A stretch of 64,000 bases of DNA, taken from Candidatus Latescibacterota bacterium (lineage in GTDB: Bacteria > Latescibacterota > UBA2968 > UBA8231). A model generated the notes under the pieces. That model was not told the DNA's origin. It made no database searches and saw only the letters and a program-made list of their open reading frames with translations. Positions 5,622 through 30,075 of the stretch are shown here, piece by piece; position 1 is the stretch's first letter; the number at the start of each line of letters is the position of its first letter. The translations under genes were made by a program, and so were the position numbers. Where the stretch lies: the NCBI GenBank assembly GCA_965206595.1, contig OZ242214.1, forward strand, positions 2,272,001-2,336,000. Direction: 5' to 3'.

Positions 5622-6695
5622 ATGAATGCAACGAACAGACGCAGCGTGATCCTTTCGGCGATCTCCCTCGGCCTGGCCGCGGCCCTGGGGTGCTCGTCGC
5701 CGACCGACAACGGCAACGGAAACGGCGAGCCCGCGGGACCGCCGGCCTGGAAGCTCGTGCAGCAGGAGCTGCCCTCGGCGCTGATGTCCGTACAGGTCGT
5801 CTCCAACGGCGACGTCTACGCCGTCGGCAGCGACGTCGAGGACGGCCGGGGGCCGTACGTGCTGCGCTTCGACGGAAGCAACTGGACCCGCCTGGAAACC
5901 GGCGCCGGCGGTGATTTGTGGTGGGTGCACGAGGTCGGCCCGGACGAAATCTGGATGAGCGGCACCAACCGGCTCGTGCTGCGCTACCAACCCTCGACGG
6001 GGACCTTCACCCAGTTCGACGCCGGCGAGGGGCCGGAAATCCTCTACGGCATCTGGGGGTTGAGCGGCGACGACATCTGGGCGGTGGGCGGCCAGAAATG
6101 CGGGGTCGCCCTGCGCTTCGACGGAAGCAGTTGGCTCGAGCTCGAGCTGCCGGAGCTCGAGGGGGCGGTCTGTCTGCCCAACCTCTTCAAGGTCTGGGGC
6201 CCCGCGGCCGACGAGGTCTGGATGGTTGGAGAGCGGGGCGTCGTCCTCTCCTTCGACGGCTCTGCTATCTCCCTGCAGCAGACCGAATCGGGGCGCACTC
6301 TGTTCACCGTGCACGGCGACGCCAACGGGGAGCTGATAACCGCGGTCGGGGGACAGCTGTCGGGAGAGATCTGGGAGCTGGTCGACGGGGTCTGGACCGA
6401 AGTGACCCCCGAGCGCACGCGGCAGATGCTCGGCGTCAACGTCGGGCGGGGCGGGGAGGCGGTAGCGGTCGGGGAAGACGCCTCGAGCGTCCGCCGCGGC
6501 AGCGATGGCTGGGCGCTCGAGGAGAACGGCCTTTTCGACGCGGTCGGCGATCTCACCTTTCACGCCGTGTGGAGCGATGCGGACAGCAATGCCTGGGCGG
6601 TCGGAGGGCAGCTGCTGATCGGTCCGTTCGACCGCGGCATGGTCGCCTTCTACGGCCCGGACACCCCCTCTTCCGAGATCGTCAACGGCCGCTGA
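5622..6695 (+). CDS. Beta-propeller lipoprotein with '(I/V)WG...D(I/V)WAVG' repeats, function unknown
   Basis: Lipobox ALGC; repeated 'L..VWG....VW.VG..G....(F/Y)DG..W' blades. Confidence 0.75.
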   Translation: MNATNRRSVILSAISLGLAAALGCSSPTDNGNGNGEPAGPPAWKLVQQELPSALMSVQVVSNGDVYAVGSDVEDGRGPYVLRFDGSNWTRLETGAGGDLWWVHEVGPDEIWMSGTNRLVLRYQPSTGTFTQFDAGEGPEILYGIWGLSGDDIWAVGGQKCGVALRFDGSSWLELELPELEGAVCLPNLFKVWGPAADEVWMVGERGVVLSFDGSAISLQQTESGRTLFTVHGDANGELITAVGGQLSGEIWELVDGVWTEVTPERTRQMLGVNVGRGGEAVAVGEDASSVRRGSDGWALEENGLFDAVGDLTFHAVWSDADSNAWAVGGQLLIGPFDRGMVAFYGPDTPSSEIVNGR

Positions 6696-17346: not shown

Positions 17347-17364
17347 ATATCGGATATATCGGAT
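17347..17364. repeat. Tandem 9-bp ATATCGGAT x2 (target-site duplication; third copy at 25195-25203)
   Basis: ATATCGGAT at 17347-17355, 17356-17364 and 25195-25203, abutting the IS4 inverted repeats. Confidence 0.9.
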
Positions 17365-17377
17365 CACTACTGTCCCG

Positions 17378-17797
17378 TTATAAGTCGAATAATTTCAACT
17401 GGTTACAAACCTTCTCCGGTTCGTTTTGGAGATGAGGTTTCGTAAGTACTTGTAAAATATCAACTTTCTCGAAAAGTGAAACGGTGAGAATTTGCAGGAT
17501 TTCGGAGAGACTGCGGTCGACCTGCAGGTGCTTTTTGACGATGGCCACCAGCACGTACATGCTGACGGCGATCCAGATCTGCGTCTGTACCGCATTCTCG
17601 GAGGTTCCGAAAAACGCCTTGATGCGCAGGTGCTGCTTGATCCACTTGAAGAACAGCTCCACCTGCCAGCGACATCGATACAACTGGGCAATGGTTAAAG
17701 AAGGCAGAAGAAATTGGTTGCTCAGGAAGACCAATCGTTTCCTCGTTTCGACGTCGAAGAAACTTATGCGGCGAAGCGCGTCGGGGTATTCTTTTGG
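17378..17797 (-). pseudogene. IS4-family transposase, C-terminal fragment
   Basis: 'KEYPDALRRISFFD…LVFLSN…IAQLYRCRWQVELFFKWIKQHL…GTSENAV' includes the YREK motif. Confidence 0.9.
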
Positions 17798-18171
17798 AAC
17801 TTATACAGGATGGTAGCCAACGGCCGGTTCTGAGGCTCCGGAGCCCCTCAGGGGCGCCGCCCGGGGGTTCCTGAGAGAAGGCACTGATGGACACCGCAAA
17901 AGAGGATCGGGAGGATTTAGAGGCTGACCTGCGAGAGTGGCAGATAATGCAGGAGTTTTCGCTGACCGAGAAAGATTTATTCCCCCCCTACAAGTCCATC
18001 GACCTTCTCCCGCAGATCGATGAGATTCTTCTTATTAGACTCCGCAAGAGCATAAACAAACTCAAACGACTTAACGACTTCATGCCGAAATTTATCAAGG
18101 AATAGTATGCGCTGTTCCAGTTCATTGATCCTGTCCTCCAAAATTTGGAACTTATACGGGATGGTAACCAA
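17793..18171. repeat. 28-bp direct repeat TTTGGAACTTATAC(A/G)GGATGGTA(G/A)CCAA at 17793-17820 and 18144-18171
   Basis: 26/28 identity. The first copy sits at the breakpoint of the IS4 transposase. Confidence 0.8.
17887..18105 (+). CDS. Small hypothetical protein (low-GC cargo)
   Basis: 72-aa ORF with a purine-rich upstream sequence. An antisense 64-aa coiled-coil-like ORF (17977..18171) is an alternative. Confidence 0.4.
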   Translation: MDTAKEDREDLEADLREWQIMQEFSLTEKDLFPPYKSIDLLPQIDEILLIRLRKSINKLKRLNDFMPKFIKE

Positions 18172-18589
18172 GGGATGAAAATTAGCCTTGGGCTGCGGTT
18201 TTGAGAGGTGGGGGGGCCGGAAGGCCCACCCGGGTTCGTCCCGAATGGGCCTTCGCTACATAAGAGCCAGTGACTCTTCATATCGACGGGCTCTGCATGC
18301 GCATCACCCCCCTTCGAGTGTCGGCTACCTGCCTGTAGCCGACACTCAACATACGGAACCAGAGAAGGGGGCGCCGTTCTCGACTCCAGCCGGCCATGAG
18401 AACGGCAACCCCTCCCGGATTGATTGTCACACCTGGGTGCATGCGGGTCACCCGCGAGAGACTCCAAGCTCAAGGGGTCGCCCTCCAGGCTGGCCAAGAC
18501 AGTCAACCCTAACTCTATATGAGTTCCTGAAAAAAGGTCCGCCGTGAACCACGGGCCCCCCTCATGACCTTCCATGAAGGAGAAGCAAT

Positions 18590-18781
18590 ATGGCTGACGA
18601 GAGCGTTACTACCGAAGATCACTCTGTCAAGGAAATCGTCAAGGCTATCAACAGTCTTGAAGCGACCATCAAATTACAGCACCTACAGAGCCTCAAGCTA
18701 ATGAGACAAATAGACAGGGCGTTAAGGAGACAAAGGAATCAGCGAGGAATAGTTAATGATCTACGCATCGGGATCGATTAG
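18590..18781 (+). CDS. Small hypothetical protein
   Basis: Strong RBS AAGGAG upstream of the ATG; 63 aa; low GC. Confidence 0.55.
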   Translation: MADESVTTEDHSVKEIVKAINSLEATIKLQHLQSLKLMRQIDRALRRQRNQRGIVNDLRIGID

Positions 18782-18786
18782 CTCTT

Positions 18787-19152
18787 TCATTCTTCCTGTT
18801 CGGGTATGTCATTTATGAATAGGGCTATATCATTTGCCATTTGTATCATATCATTTCTCAGCCACGGGGCATGTTTCAGTAATTCCAATCGGCCGTCGGC
18901 GGTTTTGATCGGGCCCCCTCCCCTGTCATCTGGAAATCTGGCAGCTTCCCCACGACAATCTAAAAAGATCGTCTCGGCGATGAGCTGCAAAGTCAGTTCC
19001 TTTTCCAATTCCCTTTTTCTCTGTTGATATTTTTTCGAAAACACCGAAGCTACCTTTACGCCGAAGCCATCCTCGATTTCTTGCCATACTCCCTCCTCGC
19101 AGAAACTTTCGAAGATGGAACGAGGCAATTGTGGTGAATTGGCGCTCATCAT
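18787..19152 (-). CDS. Hypothetical protein
   Basis: RBS AAGGAG before ATG 19152; ~120 aa; convergent with the previous ORF. Confidence 0.55.
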   Translation of the reverse strand: MMSANSPQLPRSIFESFCEEGVWQEIEDGFGVKVASVFSKKYQQRKRELEKELTLQLIAETIFLDCRGEAARFPDDRGGGPIKTADGRLELLKHAPWLRNDMIQMANDIALFINDIPEQEE

Positions 19153-19772
19153 GATTCTCCTTGAGTTGGACATTTGTGGAACGCGCCCTCCTGCGGTGGA
19201 CACCCAGGGGGGCGTTAGTGCTCAGGTATTAGCCTCTGGCTTTCCTCAGGGCCACGTTGGTGTGTACAACTGTCTGCGGGGACTCTCCCCGCTTCATTGC
19301 TTTATCTTCCCAGAAAAAACCATAGCGTCGATCAGGGCTTGAAGTTCCGCCCTAAGGGCCTTCTTGCTCTCTGCGCTCACCACTTCTGTCGGTTGGGTTT
19401 TCCGAAATCGAACTCTGGATTAGCGTAAAAGCTCCAGTTGCCGATCCGTTTACCCATCTCCCAATCTTCGGGGGCGAAAACCGAGCCCACTGAGATGGTC
19501 ACGGTGACATCGTGGTCGACGCCATTCTCACTTCTGGCGATTTTGATCTTCATGCGCTTTTCTCCAGATCAGTATGCGAAAAAAGTGCTCCCCCGATCCG
19601 AGGGTTGCCCACCACTGTAGACCGGGGGAGCGGTTCGAAAGGGCCGTAGCCCTCTTTCAGGGAGGGGTCGAGAGTCCCTCCCAAGCTACTTCTGATCTTC
19701 TTGCCGGGCGCCGGCACAAGGGGCTCGGGAATTTCCCAAGGGAATCATCCCCCTCGCGCCGGCATCGTACGC

Positions 19773-20660
19773 CTACTCTGACCTGTCGGCGGTCTTCAGG
19801 CGGGCCCATGTGGTGGTCTCGACGGCGGTCTGTTCGGGCCCCAGCAGGATGGCATCTACGAAGCTATCAGCTCCCTCTACTCCCTCTGTTACTGCATTAG
19901 GATCATACAGGTAGAACTGGCCAGCTTTGGTATCGTCATGGTCCCAGTCAAATACTACTATGCTGAATCCAATGATCTGGCCGGGCTCGAATGATGAAAT
20001 CACGACTTCCTCAGGCCCCAGGGAGAACATATCGTCGAAGGCGGTGACGTAGAACTCGACCGTCCAGAAGATCGGGTTTTCTCCGAGCACCGTGCCGCTG
20101 CCGAGTGCGTAGGGTTCGGCGGTCGTCCATGACCGGTTGAGGTTAAACGGTAGAGCCACCAGACGGTAATTCTGTTCTGAGTATGATGTGGCCTCATAGT
20201 ATTGCGCTTGGGCCTGGTCTCTCAGGTCTAGCTCTGAGGTGCTGCTCGTTATGGGGAAAGAGAACCGCCCCCCGGAGTGGTCTCCATCCACCATCAGGGA
20301 AATGTGATCATTGAAGTAATGGATTCCGTCATGCACGTCCCTACTTCGGTACACGTCATCGGCGGCTTCTGCGGCTACGTAGATTTTGCCGCCATCGGCC
20401 CACGCCATCCAGATGCGGAAATCCAGATTGGCAGGATCGTATTCGCTGTAGGACATGAGCTGATGAGCAAACATCGTGAAGTCGAGCGCCGTAAACGTGG
20501 GCTCTCCGAACAGGTCTTTCCAGTCAGTCAGGTCGCCGTCCAGCTCGATGGTAGCCAGATTGTCTGCAGAGAGGTAGGGGATGGAGAATACCCGGTCTCC
20601 TGTGTGCGCAACGGCTGCCAACGGTAGCCAGATGGAGAGCAGTACGGCGAGCAGTCTCAT
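19773..20660 (-). CDS. Secreted CBM9/DOMON-like sugar-binding protein with C-terminal TAVETTTWARLK tail
   Basis: Signal peptide; 'IELDGDLTDW', 'YDPANLDFRIWMAW', 'YVAAEAADD', 'DGDHSGG'. Confidence 0.7.
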   Translation of the reverse strand: MRLLAVLLSIWLPLAAVAHTGDRVFSIPYLSADNLATIELDGDLTDWKDLFGEPTFTALDFTMFAHQLMSYSEYDPANLDFRIWMAWADGGKIYVAAEAADDVYRSRDVHDGIHYFNDHISLMVDGDHSGGRFSFPITSSTSELDLRDQAQAQYYEATSYSEQNYRLVALPFNLNRSWTTAEPYALGSGTVLGENPIFWTVEFYVTAFDDMFSLGPEEVVISSFEPGQIIGFSIVVFDWDHDDTKAGQFYLYDPNAVTEGVEGADSFVDAILLGPEQTAVETTTWARLKTADRSE

Positions 20661-21604
20661 GGGGCCGTTCTTTTCTCTATGATCCTGTCTGACAGGAAGC
20701 AGATGCCTCGTGGCGACCAGTGCGGGAATAGGTCCGCCCCTTCTGCATCGGTAAGCCGGCGCACTCCTGAGCCGTCCGCGAGGGCTCGGTAGACAGAGGG
20801 GCTGCCGTCTTCGCGGTCTGACACGAAGGTCAGCTCACGGCCGTCCGGTGACCACGATGGATCCTGGTCAGCCGCCGGGTGGTTGGTGATGTTGCGCACG
20901 TCGGTCCCATCTGCCTTCATGACGAGAATTTTGGAATTGCCATCACGGATCTGCTGCAAGGCGAATTGGCTGCCGTCCGGAGACCATGCGGCATTGAGGA
21001 CGAAATTCACGTCGGCGTCGAAATCGAATGTGTCATGCGGGCTGGCCGCCAGCCCGTCGGTTTTCCAGACGTGAAGGCTCCATTCGTGGCCGATCCCGGC
21101 CGTGAAGGCGATGCGATCCCCTGAGGGTGACCAGGACGGCATCCCGATGTACGGGGTTGTCCCGTTGGTCAGGTTGACGGTGACCTGACGGGCTATGTCG
21201 ATGACGTAGAGGTCGTTCTGGCTGACCGCCTTGGAGCCGGGCGGCTGCGCTACGAACGCGACCCTGTTGCCGCTGAAGGCCAGAGACCGGATGCCGCGCA
21301 GCTCAGAGGAGATCTGCACGAACTGGATGGTGCTCTGCTGATCATCGTAGATGCCGAGCTGTGCGCCCGGGTGGTTGTGCCCGGCGGTATCGGGTACGGA
21401 GAGGAATACCATCCGGTCGTCTGTTCCCCACGTCAGGCCCGTGATGTTTCCGGGGCCGTCTGCGATCAGCCTGACGTTAGAGCCATCGGCGTCCATCAGG
21501 GCGATGGCGCCGTCTGCCATGTGTGCGGCTCCCGGCCGCACGGCCAAAATGAAAAAAACGCCGCAGAGCACGAGGCCCTGCGGCGTCCTGAAGACGGTCA
21601 GCAT
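20657..21604 (-). CDS. TolB-like (PD40/WD40-like) beta-propeller protein
   Basis: Repeats PSWSPSGDRIAF, AAWSPDGSQFA, PSWSPDGRELTF, PHWSP. Start overlaps the stop of the upstream peptide gene. Confidence 0.85.
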   Translation of the reverse strand: MLTVFRTPQGLVLCGVFFILAVRPGAAHMADGAIALMDADGSNVRLIADGPGNITGLTWGTDDRMVFLSVPDTAGHNHPGAQLGIYDDQQSTIQFVQISSELRGIRSLAFSGNRVAFVAQPPGSKAVSQNDLYVIDIARQVTVNLTNGTTPYIGMPSWSPSGDRIAFTAGIGHEWSLHVWKTDGLAASPHDTFDFDADVNFVLNAAWSPDGSQFALQQIRDGNSKILVMKADGTDVRNITNHPAADQDPSWSPDGRELTFVSDREDGSPSVYRALADGSGVRRLTDAEGADLFPHWSPRGICFLSDRIIEKRTAP

Positions 21605-21840
21605 CAATCTGTGCAGTGACAGTAGTTCGGGGTACCGCCGCAGCAGGAGTCCGCACCGTTGTGACCGACCATGACGCAGCTCCACTGACAAAAGCCGATT
21701 GGATTGTCCTGGGTCATGCACGGGCCCAGGCTGTGCCAAGGATAATGGGTCTCTCCTTCGACCGGAGGCCATGCACTGAGGCTAACGGCGCCTAATGCCA
21801 TCACGGCCACAGTTCCTACGGCTATAAAGACACGTCGCAT
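21604..21840 (-). CDS. Secreted Cys-rich defensin-like (CS-alpha-beta pattern) peptide
   Basis: RBS AGGAAGG, signal peptide, and a mature region with C-x9-CQWSC-x10-CC-x6-CHC. Confidence 0.7.
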   Translation of the reverse strand: MRRVFIAVGTVAVMALGAVSLSAWPPVEGETHYPWHSLGPCMTQDNPIGFCQWSCVMVGHNGADSCCGGTPNYCHCTD

Positions 21841-21908
21841 TATCTGATCCTTCCTGTTTAGAGGTTTTGAGGGTACGTACTTCTCGTCACGTTCGTGAGC
21901 TTACAGCC

Positions 21909-22156
21909 CTAGTCCCAACACCAGCACTTGTCGGGTTCGTTGGTCGAGACGCAGCAGTGGTGGTCGCCATCTTCAGGATTTACAGGTGGCCATCCATGAC
22001 ACAGCTCCACTGACAATAGCCGGTAGGATTGCTGTAGTCGCCGCAGTTCCAGTAATGCCATCCTTCGCTATCGGCATTGGTCGGACTCGACGTAGCGGTA
22101 GTCAGGCCGAAGCCCAGACCTACGGCCACGCCGACGATCAACAGAAAACGCTTCAT
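21909..22156 (-). pseudogene. Second defensin-like peptide, frameshifted near 21980 (possibly a sequencing indel)
   Basis: MKRFLL… signal peptide, then 'NCGDYSNPTGYCQWSCVMDGH'. The shifted frame continues 'NPEDGDHHCCVSTNEPDKCWCWD*', matching the paralog's Cys pattern. Confidence 0.7.
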
Positions 22157-22245
22157 GCGGGTACTCCTTCCTTGAGGTGTGGGGAACATTACGAACGAAG
22201 AAACAAACAGCAATTACGAAGCCCTACTCCTTCCCGTCAGGGCTT

Positions 22246-23037
22246 CTATCTGGTAGCTTTGACCTCGCCCCATGTCTGGTGGAGAACGGCGGTTTCGCCC
22301 GGACTCAGCAGCAGGGCCCTGACGGCGGTAGAAGCATCCTCAGGCGCCAGATTGAACCACGTATTTCTTCTGTCGTGATCGTCAACGTCGACTACTCTCA
22401 GGACCAGATCGACCTCGTCTCCGGCGGCCAAGTCCGTGATGACACTTTCGTTTCTGACACGCTCACGTTCACGCATAACAGGCGAAGTAGCGTCTGCCAG
22501 CAGCACATCAAAAGACGTGAAGAAGAACTCAATCCCCCATGTGGCAGGCGTCTGCTCTGCCCGGACGGCATCGGCGAATGGCGGATGTGCGCTCCACCGG
22601 GCAATGCGTTTGCCTACTGCCGGGAACGACTGGATGAGTATCCCGGCCGGCCGGACGGCATACATGTGGGTAAACATCACTTCGCGGCTGTCCGGCGTTA
22701 CCGCAATGACCAGACCGTCCGCTTGTACGAAAAGCGGGCTGCCATCATCCCGGATGAGATCGTCCGTAAAGGTCGCCGCCACGAAGATGCGCCCTGGCGG
22801 GCTCCACCCGAGCCAGATGCGGAAATCCAGATTCTCGGGATCGTACTCATCACGCGGATGACCCTCCGGAATGCGGAAATCTGACGCCGTCAGTAAGGGC
22901 GGGCCCAGAAGATCAGACCAGTCGTCCAGCTCGCCATCCAGCTCGATTTGATCCTCCTGTACGTACGGGATCGGAACTGCACCGTCAGCCGGGATGACCA
23001 GCAGCAAGGTCGCGAATGCCATGAGGTAGTAGCGCAT
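22246..23037 (-). CDS. Secreted CBM9/DOMON-like protein with C-terminal TAVLHQTWGEVK tail (paralog of 19773..20660)
   Basis: Own RBS GAGGA and ATG 23037 with a signal peptide; 'IELDGELDDW', 'YDPENLDFRIWLGW'. Confidence 0.7.
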   Translation of the reverse strand: MRYYLMAFATLLLVIPADGAVPIPYVQEDQIELDGELDDWSDLLGPPLLTASDFRIPEGHPRDEYDPENLDFRIWLGWSPPGRIFVAATFTDDLIRDDGSPLFVQADGLVIAVTPDSREVMFTHMYAVRPAGILIQSFPAVGKRIARWSAHPPFADAVRAEQTPATWGIEFFFTSFDVLLADATSPVMRERERVRNESVITDLAAGDEVDLVLRVVDVDDHDRRNTWFNLAPEDASTAVRALLLSPGETAVLHQTWGEVKATR

Positions 23038-23252
23038 GGGGCTATCCTCCTCTGAAGGGGTAGGGGCCGGGAAGGTACTCGTTACTCGTTTACCCGCTGG
23101 ATACACAATAGGACCGCGCCGGGGCGTATGGCTGGCTTTCCCCAATCTCCGGCGCGGCGAAACAGGCCGAAGGGTATCCGCCCCGGCCCTGAACGGCTGT
23201 CTATTCTGCTTTGTCGGCGTCGGGTCGGTTGTGCTTGCGGAGCGAGGGGTCA

Positions 23253-24528
23253 GCGCCATCATGGCGCACAAGGTGACCATCTGGTTGGCGAGCAAGCGCC
23301 GGGTGGGGATCAGGTCCAGCCCGGCCTGTTGCTTGGCCTCCCCGAAGACCCCTTCCTGAGCGCCGCGCCCCCCGTGAAAGAGGACGACGTTACCTGCCGA
23401 GGTCGTTTTGTTGGTCACCACGACCCGGTAGTCATGGTCGAATTGTCGAGGTTGAAACAGATCCAGCTGCAACGGTTGCTTGGTCTGTCGTTTGACCCTG
23501 CGGCGCACGAAGACAAACCGATACGAGGCCGCCCAGCTTGCCGGTTTCCACGCACTTTCGAAATAGGACCGTTCCTTGTCCAGATAGCGCCAGCGTTTTC
23601 GTGACTCGACCTTGTGCTTGAGCTCGGGGAAGCGTTCGAAGGGCACGCTGAGGGTGTACTCGGCGCCATACAAATCCAGGAGGGTGAGGGTGTGTTGGCT
23701 GAAGAAGGCGCTGTCCAGACGGGCCTCGAGCACGGGGTGGGTACCCAGGGCGCCGACCCGGTCGAAGGTGTCCATCATGAACTCATGACCCCCCTTGCTG
23801 TCATGGACATTGCCGGGACGGTGCAGGACATCGAGAAATTGCCCGGTTTGGGCCACGGTGCAAAACAGGTTGTAGTAACTGCGGGCCCCCTTCCTTTTGG
23901 GGTTGTAGCCGACGGCGGTACCTTCGGCATGAGCGCGCGTGGATACCACCGACCCGTCGAAGTCGAGGGTCAGACGAGGCAACTGCTCACGCTGGAGCGC
24001 ATGTATCACCAGGGTCGAGGACAGCTGGCGCACGTGGGCCCCATTCGAGGGGCTCAGGGACGCCAGGGTGCGACTGATGGTGGCCACGTCCGGTAGCCGA
24101 CGCAATCCCAACAAGCGCTGCACCACCGGATCGTCCCGGTAGTAGTCCACGTCTCGCAAGCGCCGGAAACCTAATAGTAGATGTACGACGAGCAGCAACA
24201 CAACGACATGGGGACCGAAGATCGCCGAGCCCTTGGCGGGACGGAAGCAGTGCTTCAATCGGGCTTTCAGGTTAAGCCGCTGAAACAGCAGCAAAAAGAC
24301 GATCGCTCCGGCAAAGGAAGTAAGTTGTTGATCTTCGAAACGAAGTCGGGGAAGCTTGTAAAAACGGGCAAAAACCGCTTGTTTGCTGTACTTCACTTGC
24401 GGTGTCCTCCAGGAATGGGGTCGATAATGTTTTGGTCAATATCATCGATACCCAATTCCCAGAGGCGCCGCAAGTGACTATGTGCTCAAGCAGCAGGGGA
24501 AATAGCCCACTTTTATGCAACCAGAGGG
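23253..24528 (-). mobile_element. IS1380-family element, 3'-truncated (transposase from GTG 24396)
   Basis: 'LTSFAG', 'LTLDFDGSV', 'GYNPKRKGARSYY', 'RPGNVHDS', 'RLDSAFF', 'RGAQE..F.E.K'. The probable left end CCCTCTGGTTGCATAAAA interrupts the IS4 transposase. Confidence 0.85.
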
Positions 24529-25051
24529 TATACATGGCGCCCGGTTCCAACACCAAGTGGTCGAGGAGATTGACATCGTGCGTTTTTCCCTCTGTAATGC
24601 GTAGGCAGCAGGGGATGTTGCCGCGCAGGTCCATCAAGGTGTGCAGCTTGATGGCGGCCTTGCGCTGACGAAAGCGGGCCCAAGGAAACAGGGAAAGACA
24701 CAGATCGATGGTGCTGGAATCGAAGACGTAGGCGGTCTGCTCGAGTTGGACTCCAAAGTCGTCTTGGCTGTATAGCTTGCGGGCGTGGCCAATGAGCACC
24801 TGAGCGAAGTCGGCGTAGATGCGCCAGTCCCGGTTTCTCGTTGGCCCGGGCCAAGGCGCTCGAAGGCAGGTTTCGATGTCTCGCAGGCTCTCGCGACCGG
24901 TCAGTTGGGCAAAGGCCATACAGAGAAACTGATCCAGACAGGAGAAGCGTTGCACCTTGTGCTGGCCCCGGTAGCGCTGAACACAGCGACGAAACGCGGG
25001 CAACGGGAAGAATTCCATGAGCTGTGAAAAGACGAAGCGTCCGCAGTACAT
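24529..25051 (-). pseudogene. IS4-family (DUF4372-type) transposase, N-terminal fragment with internal deletion
   Basis: 'FVFSQLM…FSCLDQFLCMAFAQLTGRESLRDIE…DSSTIDLCLSLFPWARFR…KLHTL', ending at 'EPGAMY'. Confidence 0.9.
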
Positions 25052-25246
25052 GGGCCGTTCCTTGTGAAGGATCGAGGAGGAGAAGGCCCGAAATAACGAG
25101 ACGGTTTCAAGTCGATTCCATCGACGAAATTATGTAAAACCAACAAAACCAATGAGTTACGAAAAATTCCTCAGCCAACAGCGGGACAGTAGTGATATCG
25201 GATACCAAATCTGCGCTGGAGCCTTGCAGGTTTCAGGGAATGTCTG

Positions 25247-28457: not shown

Positions 28458-28738
28458 GATCTTGTATGGCACCTCCGATCATACAATGAGGGCGGCAACA
28501 TCCCCCCGCCCGTAGACGGGATCTCCCGCGCGCCCAGGAGAGCGGCTCGAACCCTCCGCCCGGCTGCCCGGCCGGGAGCCTGCACGTCGACAACGCCCGC
28601 TTCTTCCACACCCATCCCGGTTTTCCCATGCCGGCGTACGCCGGCTTCGCTCCAACCCTTCTTTTCGCAGCAGCGTCCGCAGAAAAAAATGAAGTGACAG
28701 ATTTCCTCCCGGCAGGTGTTCAACCTGGCAAGACCGGC

Positions 28739-29212
28739 ATGGATATCGAGGACCTCTACCGCCAGTACGGGCCCATGGTGATGCGGCGATGCAGGCAGCT
28801 TCTCAGGGATGACGAGCAGGCCATGGATGCCACTCAGGACGTCTTTGTGCTGCTCTTGCAGCGCCGGTCGCGGCTGAAGGCGGACTATCCGTCGAGCCTG
28901 CTCTACCGCATGGCCACCAACCTGTGTCTGAACCGGATCAGGGACGGTAAGCGGCGGCGGGAAACCGCGGACGGCGGGCTCATCGACCGCATCGCGGACG
29001 CAGGGGAACTGGAACCGAGACTGACGGCCCGTTCGGTGCTGGAGCGGTTGTTCGGAGGCCATCAGGATTCCACCCGCGTCATCGCCGTGCTGCACTACGT
29101 CGACGGGATGACCCTGGAAGAGGTCGCAGGCGAGGTCGGCATGTCGGTCTCCGGAGTGCGCAAGCGGCTTCGCAACTTGCGCCGGAGCCTGGCAGAACTG
29201 GAGAAGAGATGA
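28739..29212 (+). CDS. ECF (sigma-70 group 4) RNA polymerase sigma factor
   Basis: 'LYRQYGPMV…AMDATQDVF…LYRMATNLCLN' (region 2) and 'GMTLEEVAGEVGMSVSGVRKRL' (region 4). Confidence 0.92.
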   Translation: MDIEDLYRQYGPMVMRRCRQLLRDDEQAMDATQDVFVLLLQRRSRLKADYPSSLLYRMATNLCLNRIRDGKRRRETADGGLIDRIADAGELEPRLTARSVLERLFGGHQDSTRVIAVLHYVDGMTLEEVAGEVGMSVSGVRKRLRNLRRSLAELEKR

Positions 29213-30075
29213 ATCGCAAAACCACCGGCGGACCGGTCCCGGACTGGAAGCTCGAGCGCTACCTGCTCGGAGAGCTGCCTCCCGGGGAGGTAGAGGCAAT
29301 CCGCGGCATGACGCTCGAGGACACGGAACTTCAGGGGCGCGTCGAGGCCCTCGGGCAATCCGGCGCCGAGATACTCGAACGCTATCCGCCGGCCTGGATG
29401 AGCCGCCGGATCGAGCAGCGGTCACGGAAGGAAGCGGTCAGCCGGACTCGTGGAGGGAGGTCGTTCGCACGCATTCCCGGCTGGATCTGGCCGCTGCCGG
29501 CCCTGGTCGCGGCTTTCCTGTTGATGGTTCTGCCGGCGCGCCAGGAGATCGACGATGCGGCAACCGGGCCTGCGGGTTCCGGTGCGCAGGTGCGGATCAA
29601 GGGCATGGAGCCGCAGCTGATGCTGTATCGCAAGACTTCGATGCAAAGTGAAGGGATTTTGGGAAGCGAAAGGTTGCAGGACCGCCAGGAAGTCCGGCCC
29701 GGCGACGTCGTTCAGGTCGTGTACTGGTCCGGCAAACATGGTTACGGTGCGATTCTTTCCATCGATGGGCGGGGCAGCCTCACCTGGCACTTGCCGCCGG
29801 ACGGCGGCGAGGCGGCGAGGCTGCAGGAGGGCAGAGTGCCGCTTGAGTTCGCCTACGAGCTCGATGACGCTCCCGAGTTCGAACGCTTCTACTTCATCAC
29901 CGCGGATTCGCCGTTTCAGCTGGGGAAGGTCGCGGCCTCGGCGGTCGAAGGCGCGTCTCAGGTCAGAGACCGGACCGGTACGGAATCGAAGCCGGCGGAC
30001 CTCGATTCCCTGAACCTCCCCCGGCGTTTCAGCCAGTTCACGATCACGCTCAGCAAAGGACCGGACATTGAATAA
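29209..30075 (+). CDS. Putative anti-sigma factor: N-terminal ASD-like domain, one TM helix, extracytoplasmic DUF4384-like domain
   Basis: 'LERYLLGEL' N-terminus; TM 'WIWPLPALVAAFLLMVL'; 'ILSIDGRG…LP…ELDDAP..ERF'. Overlaps the sigma factor stop. Confidence 0.75.
   Translation: MNRKTTGGPVPDWKLERYLLGELPPGEVEAIRGMTLEDTELQGRVEALGQSGAEILERYPPAWMSRRIEQRSRKEAVSRTRGGRSFARIPGWIWPLPALVAAFLLMVLPARQEIDDAATGPAGSGAQVRIKGMEPQLMLYRKTSMQSEGILGSERLQDRQEVRPGDVVQVVYWSGKHGYGAILSIDGRGSLTWHLPPDGGEAARLQEGRVPLEFAYELDDAPEFERFYFITADSPFQLGKVAASAVEGASQVRDRTGTESKPADLDSLNLPRRFSQFTITLSKGPDIE

Follow-up and report, generated by a model that had tools for sequence, protein, structure and literature searches.

What do two small cysteine-rich peptide genes do in front of a TolB-like propeller gene, and how did they come to be there? 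The question is raised by a locus in a 64,000-nt stretch of DNA from Candidatus Latescibacterota bacterium (contig OZ242214.1, positions 2,272,001 to 2,336,000; here called the window), part of a source genome, G000, of 7.05 Mb and 92.9% completeness. An initial annotation had described the pair, here pep1 and pep2, as bacterial defensin-like peptides carried as mobile cargo and coupled to the propeller. We put at roughly 50% the probability that they belong as satellite copies to a diversifying, lineage-specific family of mini-proteins, exported and folded by disulfides, which would act as binding proteins and be made in excess of the partner proteins encoded beside them. The peptide features, in window coordinates, are as follows.

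21604..21840, minus strand: pep2, an intact 78-aa precursor (open reading frame, predicted class I signal and 55-aa acidic core)
21980..22156, minus strand: 5' part of pep1, a 58-aa open reading frame paralogous to pep2, with an early stop after the conserved GH
21909..21983, minus strand: 3' part of pep1, a CC...CxC tail in a different frame with its stop at 21909

Both genes were located where they had been annotated, with purine-rich stretches resembling ribosome-binding sites and hydrophobic N termini (judged by inspection). In pep2, a predicted class I signal of about 23 aa is followed by a 55-aa core with four histidines and seven cysteines in the spacing C9C3C10CC6C1C. The common motif NPxG(F/Y)CQWSCVMxGH was recovered as well: pep1 and pep2 are 34% identical over 61 aa (E ~3e-7, tblastn against the 7-Mb genome), and their DNA shares a 46-nt repeat at 85% identity. 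Mature pep2 has a net charge of -5 and an odd cysteine count, as had been stated.

The pep1 reading frame of 58 aa ends in ...CQWSCVMDGHL, and the annotation had restored the gene by repairing one frameshift. The break was checked in short-read contigs of four public runs over the region (X1, X4, X6 and X10), of which X1 is possibly the source. Three contigs, from three studies, spanned it with 0 gaps (X1, 19128-22788; X4, 20364-22788; X6, 21664-22788); the X10 contig had no coverage across it. A long-read error is excluded by these contigs, and the repair falls. Since the frame break is identical in contigs of three studies, pep1 is a true pseudogene in the sampled population. On inspection by eye, no slippery run suggestive of programmed frameshifting was evident at the break.

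A homologue search with pep2 as a single sequence returned only pep2 itself, so profile searches were required. The profile search gave 33 matches, two of which (P0036 and P0039) were dropped as unrelated repeat proteins, and truncated and read-through matches were left out of alignment A3. The seven-cysteine pattern, offered originally as shared by the pair, holds for pep2 and for a relative 55% identical to it with the same array (P0033), but it does not mark the family: only the four cysteines of CxxxC and CxC are invariant, in 52 of 52 members that were partly picked by this motif.

An AlphaFold2 model of the 55-residue pep2 core, built on 52 relatives, predicts a beta-alpha-beta-beta order with a pLDDT (predicted local distance difference test score) of 70. 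In core numbering, strands span residues 13-17, 39-42 and 50-54 and the helix residues 24-34; C28 and C32 of CxxxC lie in the helix, and C51 and C53 of CxC in the last strand. A CS-alpha-beta (cysteine-stabilized alpha-beta) fold, as proposed at the outset, was thereby favored: 40 of the 43 Foldseek matches listed were defensins, scorpion-type toxins, FS50 or cystine-dense peptides, none individually significant. The top rows of a VIA search were mostly defensin-type, and a sequence profile, independent of the structure, ranked insect-type defensins first (E 0.006). The ESM Atlas gave no usable match to the core.

None of the curated defensin models matched pep2 and no curated family scored above its cut-off; matches among the 52 members came to two weak ones to Gamma-thionin (best E 0.051) and one to an AtDEF-like model (E 0.0027), and the actinodefensin model was not among the NCBIfam matches. 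C41 with C66 or C67 (precursor numbering) is a candidate third disulfide in pep2, yet 31 of the 52 members have just four or five cysteines. The GXC gamma-core is missing from pep2, whose only similar element, C-C-G, is not kept in P0033, and GxC or CxG was found in 18 of 52 members. Neither third disulfide nor GXC gamma-core is conserved across the family. The members are predicted to be exported cysteine-rich mini-proteins with a cysteine-stabilized-helix (CSH) or CS-alpha-beta-like fold. As modeled, this fold behaves as a CSH-type defensin scaffold and does not belong to the six-cysteine cationic defensins.

The members are of two types, short-signal "satellites" such as the window pair and long-leader "hub" members. 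Core net charge is negative in 36 members, neutral in 7 and positive in 9 (at most +3), that is, zero or below in 43 of 52. Among short-type members, the cysteine count is odd in 34 of 42, and a histidine directly follows the helix in 42 of 42 (a count partly built into the search pattern), precedes it in 39 and stands at the N terminus in 28. Hub-type members mostly have 8 cysteines, with an even count in 8 of 10. Because the peptides are acidic and His-rich, they are probably not classical cationic antimicrobials.

The search for homologues that the annotation had proposed found 21 peptide genes or pieces in G000, the window pair included, of which 15 are intact, and matches in 20 of 168 genomes of the phylum. 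A match in G086 (E 9.6e-4) was judged probably spurious. Leaders were at least 75% identical in 42 of 1275 pairs, as against 5 of 1275 for cores. The pooled ratio of nonsynonymous to synonymous substitution (dN/dS) was 0.31 for leaders and 0.84 for the non-cysteine part of the cores (8 of 12 pairs); at 0.84, positive selection on the cores is not shown.

We then turn to the genes that accompany the peptides, which in the window are these.

20657..21604, minus strand: exported PD40 (TolB-like) beta-propeller, 315 aa (PD40 E 4.5e-21)
19773..20660, minus strand: exported CBM9/DOMON-fold protein, 295 aa, with a C-terminal ...TW(A/G)xxK tail (assigned by structure match; about 100 paralogues in G000)
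22246..23037, minus strand: upstream divergent CBM9-like gene, 263 aa, with 72% DNA identity to another G000 copy
21545..21589, minus strand: intrinsic-terminator-like hairpin and T-run, directly after the pep2 stop and within the signal-coding region of the propeller

The overlapping stops and starts reported earlier are present: the pep2 stop and the propeller ATG share bases (TGATG), as do the stop of the propeller gene and the ATG of the CBM9-like gene. The propeller is not the TolB of Tol-Pal (TIGR02800, 137.6 bits against a cut-off of 343, with profile positions 144-334 only covered). The 295-aa gene had no Pfam match when searched alone, and a PDB sequence search with the CBM9-like profile gave nothing significant. 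Its CBM9-like identity, as annotated, is backed by the model, which matched CBM9 structures with E 1e-10 and template modeling scores of 0.74-0.75 on the target (PDB 7nwn and 1i82) at 13-14% sequence identity; PF06452 occurs in 13-100% of members of its Atlas neighbors. The fold is thus the one shared with known CBM9/DOMON-like domains (7nwn, 1i82, PF06452), whereas here the proteins stand alone, are exported, number about 100 copies and fall below the Pfam cut-off.

The proposed peptide-propeller linkage stood in part. A TolB-like gene lies within 4.5 kb of 12 of the 21 G000 peptides (background, 2.2%), and one unit in G002 is the same trio of peptide, CBM9-like gene and propeller, the latter 44% identical to the window propeller. 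However, 20 of 21 peptides are followed on the same strand by a CBM9-like gene no more than 2.5 kb away, compared with 2.3% of 6265 called genes, and this gene is the first downstream partner in 16 of 20 cases, the propeller in 4. The 12 stretches taken from G001 and G002 show a CBM9-like gene downstream of each peptide locus, and a propeller downstream in 6 of them. The CBM9-like gene is the main partner, with the propeller second to it. This dependence is one-way, the peptides going with CBM9-like genes and not the reverse: 46 of 62 CBM9-like clusters in G000 have no peptide, and 72 of 76 genomes of the family carry CBM9-like genes, against 19 with peptides. Genus g14 has FG-GAP/FlgD proteins as partners, alternating with the precursors. 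CBM9-like partners have 0-3 cysteines and export tails of their own, and in 23 of 28 a histidine comes first after the signal. A predicted complex of pep2 with the window CBM9-like protein scored 0.01 in a run made without controls. CBM9-like paralogues end in a tail of the form (S/T)AVEx(V/T)(S/T)W(G/A)RIK, also present on a propeller in G126; this tail is a candidate for an uncharacterized sorting signal.

The hairpin after pep2 is unusually stable (z -3.05; 1 of 200 shuffles equally stable), and terminator-like sites follow 9 of 16 tested peptide stops, against 20 of 400 random genes. Because such hairpins come after peptide stops, the pattern suggests that the peptide is made in excess over its partners. 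Of 23 positions tested, 4 had a sigma-54 site with at most one mismatch (background, 0.13%); no such site lies upstream of the window genes, so that sigma-54 control of the window unit was rejected, and none was found for the hubs described below. A sigma-70 scan returned 0 sites.

Two sets of regulatory genes were seen near these loci. Sigma-54 activators that have Reg_prop/Y_Y_Y propellers but lack a membrane segment are located immediately upstream of hubs and of several satellites, mostly divergently and on the same strand in L178 (L166:8698-11880, L178:3875-7015 and L174:9919-12537; in G000 at about 520-522, 6472-6475 and 6970-6974 kb). An extracytoplasmic function (ECF) sigma factor with an anti-sigma-like gene occupies 28628-30075 of the window, downstream of a RecJ-like gene, and a similar ECF gene is found near a hub in G002.

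As to how the peptides reached this place, the unit lies within a split insertion sequence (IS).

17356..17364, plus strand: left copy of a 9-bp target-site duplication
17365..17795, minus strand: 3' half of an IS4 element (NF033592 positions 265-331; terminal inverted repeat 17365-17377)
23253..24529, minus strand: IS1380-family element inside the cargo
24536..25194, minus strand: 5' half of the same IS4 element (NF033592 positions 2-180; terminal inverted repeat 25182-25194)
25195..25203, plus strand: right copy of the 9-bp target-site duplication

The two ends of the insert are halves of one IS4 transposase in which about 186 nt have been replaced by 6.7 kb of cargo, IS1380 included. The terminal inverted repeats measure 13 bp, and G001 has just one copy of the target 9-mer at its empty site. 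The flanking helicase and PD-(D/E)XK genes are 7.9 kb apart in the window and adjacent in 4 of the 4 relatives in which both were found (5 searched). The inverted repeats, the target duplication and the empty site in relatives support the view that the unit is mobile cargo, for this copy, in agreement with the initial annotation. Cargo between the IS pieces is mostly single copy in G000, and the gene list of the insert holds no ABC transporter.

Three further observations concern this insert and its kind. The IS1380 transposase frame meets no stop before the upstream CBM9-like gene and runs on into it as a 716-aa read-through open reading frame (22246-24396). Positions 17796-19700, within the IS4 insert, are single-copy cargo of lower guanine-plus-cytosine content (51-56%) with several short open reading frames and no Pfam family. 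A further copy of the same IS4 family sits immediately upstream of another peptide unit (G000:C1:6984760-6985954).

The hub members have a longer leader with F-x-x-x-E-S-G and are located directly behind a conserved cassette encoding a membrane-anchored protein with CxxC and a flavinylation motif, two AhpC/TSA-type redoxins and a Peptidase_A24 protein. CxxC and (S/T)GAT are present in 8 of 8 of the flavoproteins, whose match to FMN_bind is below the cut-off (E 0.003-0.03), and both catalytic aspartates of the peptidase (D31 and D91) are invariant in 10 of 10. G000 has two intact and two broken hubs and encodes one ApbE; its only two PF01478 matches above the cut-off are the peptidases of the intact hubs. 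The gene order recurs in G001, G002, G012, G019 and G165 and is rearranged in G138, G140 and G148. Of 168 genomes, 32 have the hub peptidase; 19 of the 20 that are peptide-positive are among them. G000, at 92.9% completeness, had 0 matches to PF00437 (T2SSE), PF00482 (T2SSF), PF07963 (N_methyl) and PF04964 (Flp), and none of the 19 genomes with both peptide and hub peptidase had a pilus ATPase above the cut-off. The leader glycine is present in 13 of 14 pattern-matched leaders; 4 of 18 leaders were not matched by the pattern. Glu5 occurs in 2 of 14, residues 1-8 after the glycine are not hydrophobic, the hydrophobic tract starts at about +9, and an AxA site follows.

Other loci resemble the hubs. 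In G089, a gene for an ApbE flavin transferase lies directly upstream of the cassette (L185:9376-10269). In G115, from another family, two tandem ESG-leader precursors stand behind the hub peptidase (L183:8139-8796); since their cysteine pattern, which includes CCC, is not of the CSH type, leader and peptidase appear to serve more than one scaffold. At L162, L163 and L188:8897-10751, precursor-like leaders and cysteine-rich cores are fused to a FlgD-like export tail, apparently through recombination with the partner gene. G000 has a cassette of a second kind (C1:5493918-5501562), made up of a redoxin-like gene, a secreted cysteine-rich precursor with a different cysteine pattern and three large exported proteins with FlgD-like tails (recognized by eye), in a layout similar to that of genus g14.

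Taken as binding proteins, the peptides would work as follows. Sec would export pep2 and signal peptidase I would cut it, after which the two CSH disulfides C51-C74 and C55-C76 (precursor numbering) would close; C41 would probably pair with C66 or C67, leaving one cysteine free. The membrane-anchored redoxins and flavoprotein of the hubs would form or proofread these disulfides, acting on the window peptides in trans, and the A24 peptidase would trim the long-leader members only, after F-x-x-x-E-S-G. Partial termination would keep the peptide abundant and make the propeller and the CBM9-like protein minor co-exported products. The variable surface would then bind specific outside targets, such as competing microbes, a host or glycan-bearing surfaces, probably aided by a His/Cys metal site and not by charge-driven membrane lysis, and pep1 would be a dead copy in a birth-and-death family. 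Sequence or model directly supports the signal-like N terminus, the CxxxC and CxC pairs, the fold, the leader/core contrast, the unit order, the hairpin, the IS4 transfer and the hubs; we infer all steps after export.

Several results weigh against this reading. The best Foldseek E value was 0.12, and the best VIA Z score, 5.1 (root mean square deviation 2.9, 53 residues aligned), is below that tool's own mark of about 8. The post-helix histidine owes part of its constancy to the search. The dN/dS of the cores does not exceed 1, synonymous divergence is 0.40 in cores and 0.17 in leaders, and the leader/core pattern could come from relaxed selection, misalignment or homogenization of leaders. 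A direct profile comparison of satellites with hub members gave a probability of 18% (67% for cores and 89% for leaders via intermediates), and a hidden Markov model built on satellites only missed the hub members; the kinship of the two types is drawn from the cysteine core, shared neighbors and intermediate members, and its profile support is weak. The window peptides have no long leader. A T2SSE-family match above the cut-off is present in 4 of the 32 hub-peptidase genomes, and the completeness of G000 limits the negative result for pilus genes. Finally, the genomes are kin, so the counts of co-occurrence are not independent.

The same observations can be read in other ways. The peptides might be helpers in metal or redox traffic, His/Cys carriers or shuttles for the co-exported CBM9/DOMON-fold proteins with electrons from the hub flavoprotein and redoxins. 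The odd cysteine counts, the histidines around the helix and the leading histidine of most CBM9-like partners would suit such a role. So might the likeness to known flavinylation systems: PMC8238504 describes extracytosolic redox modules of the DsbD-DUF3570-thioredoxin-DUF4266 type, which unite ApbE, a flavinylated protein with an (S/T)GA(S/T) motif, thioredoxin-like neighbors and a small secreted protein that has CXC at its end, and places flavin mononucleotide/thioredoxin genes in P19 iron clusters. In contrast to those modules, the flavoprotein here has its own CxxC, an A24 peptidase is in the cluster, the small proteins, of CSH fold, are hypervariable, and DUF4266 and DUF3570 had no match. 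About 20 divergent copies, their leaders constant and their cores changing fast, are more than a housekeeping carrier would call for, hub members can mostly pair all their cysteines, and most CBM9-like clusters lack a peptide; we regard this explanation as rather unlikely. A bacteriocin with the downstream CBM9-like (or propeller) paralogues as cognate or orphan immunity proteins would account for peptide-first units, hypervariable partners, the many partner arrays without a peptide, the one-to-one alternation of precursor and partner in genus g14 (L178) and carriage on an IS. It is improbable, given that CBM9-like genes are much more widespread than the peptides, that the partner type varies among CBM9-like, propeller and FG-GAP/FlgD proteins, and that the partners have few cysteines and their own export tails and the peptides are acidic.

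The propeller could also be the receptor or carrier of the peptide, possibly signaling through the propeller-bearing sigma-54 activators. The stop-start overlap in the window, the propellers near 12 of 21 peptides and in half of the G001 and G002 stretches, and the activators adjoining several loci point that way. Nevertheless, the propeller is seldom first downstream and neither intact hub has one, the window genes have no upstream sigma-54 site, and the activators cannot sense an exported peptide directly because they have no membrane segment, which makes this very improbable. Hardly plausible is pilin-like display, in which long-leader members would stay anchored or polymerize after the A24 cut with the defensin-like head on the surface. 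The leader resembles those of Flp prepilins, a prepilin peptidase adjoins and a terminator follows the small gene. Like the type IV prepilins and peptidases treated in PMC4471445, the hubs have a PF01478 peptidase with both aspartates and a leader ending in glycine. They differ from that class III signal in the mostly missing Glu5, the delayed hydrophobic tract and the second, AxA-type signal peptidase site, no traffic ATPase or platform protein was found in G000, and the window peptides have no such leader. The binding-protein reading, at about even odds, is the one we prefer.

Bacterial CS-alpha-beta peptides have been known mostly as single myxobacterial genes and Actinomyces bacteriocins, and Dash et al. 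(2019) reportedly described two-disulfide CS-alpha-beta defensins. AdDLP of Anaeromyxobacter (PMC5116183) is a CSH-only bacterial defensin-like peptide; it shares with the present family export, a four-cysteine CSH core and the lack of a conserved gamma-core, so that the family fits the AdDLP-type class by these features. Here, in contrast, the peptides are acidic, His-rich and often odd in cysteine, occur at about 20 copies per genome in a different phylum and go with CBM9-like/propeller units and A24/redox hubs. The bacterial cis-defensins (PMC11561630), with 74 peptides in five classes including xanthusin-1 from Proteobacteria, Acidobacteria and Actinobacteria, likewise combine a signal peptide with a CS-alpha-beta scaffold, some with acidic N-terminal tails, but all 74 have the three framework disulfides and the GXC gamma-core that are not conserved here. 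Actifensins and actinodefensins (PMC6989792) are also multicopy, sequence-degenerate CS-alpha-beta peptides in conserved neighborhoods; they have a GA/GG leader, ABC transporters, six cysteines and proven antimicrobial activity, whereas the family here has AxA-type leader ends and the insert no ABC transporter. The same paper cites Dash et al. as listing 113 bacterial sequences.

The passages of the sponge Latescibacterota genome paper (PMC12993501) mention no such system. Searches for Latescibacter defensins, for prepilin or A24 peptidases with cysteine-rich peptides and for defensin-like peptides of sponge symbionts gave nothing matching, and no kit of this kind was found in print, within literature listings that left subscription papers and supplements outside their scope. 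Relatives bearing on novelty could be contained in the lists of Dash et al. or in the supplementary tables of PMC11561630 and PMC8238504. New here are the connection of satellites with hubs inside a single pilus-less genome, the confirmation of the pep1 break in reads, the IS4 capture and the terminator pattern.

A little-studied phylum thus holds a multicopy, fast-diversifying, acidic version of CS-alpha-beta peptides with conserved partner genes. If the hub works as we infer, a prepilin peptidase would act on secreted peptides that are not pilins, with no pilus, and a flavin-thioredoxin relay would serve oxidative folding; both points concern the way in which bacteria fold peptides rich in disulfides, as well as where defensins came from. 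More tentatively, at somewhat less than even odds, a prepilin peptidase repurposed without a pilus, a flavinylated CxxC protein and two redoxins may form a maturation line for hypervariable, defensin-fold or other disulfide-rich mini-proteins. The short-signal satellites, the window pair among them, would then be derived, IS-mobile users of this line, released with matching CBM9-like, propeller or FG-GAP arrays and aimed at a host or neighboring microbes. In bacteria, such a system would be a counterpart of conotoxin or nodule-peptide libraries.

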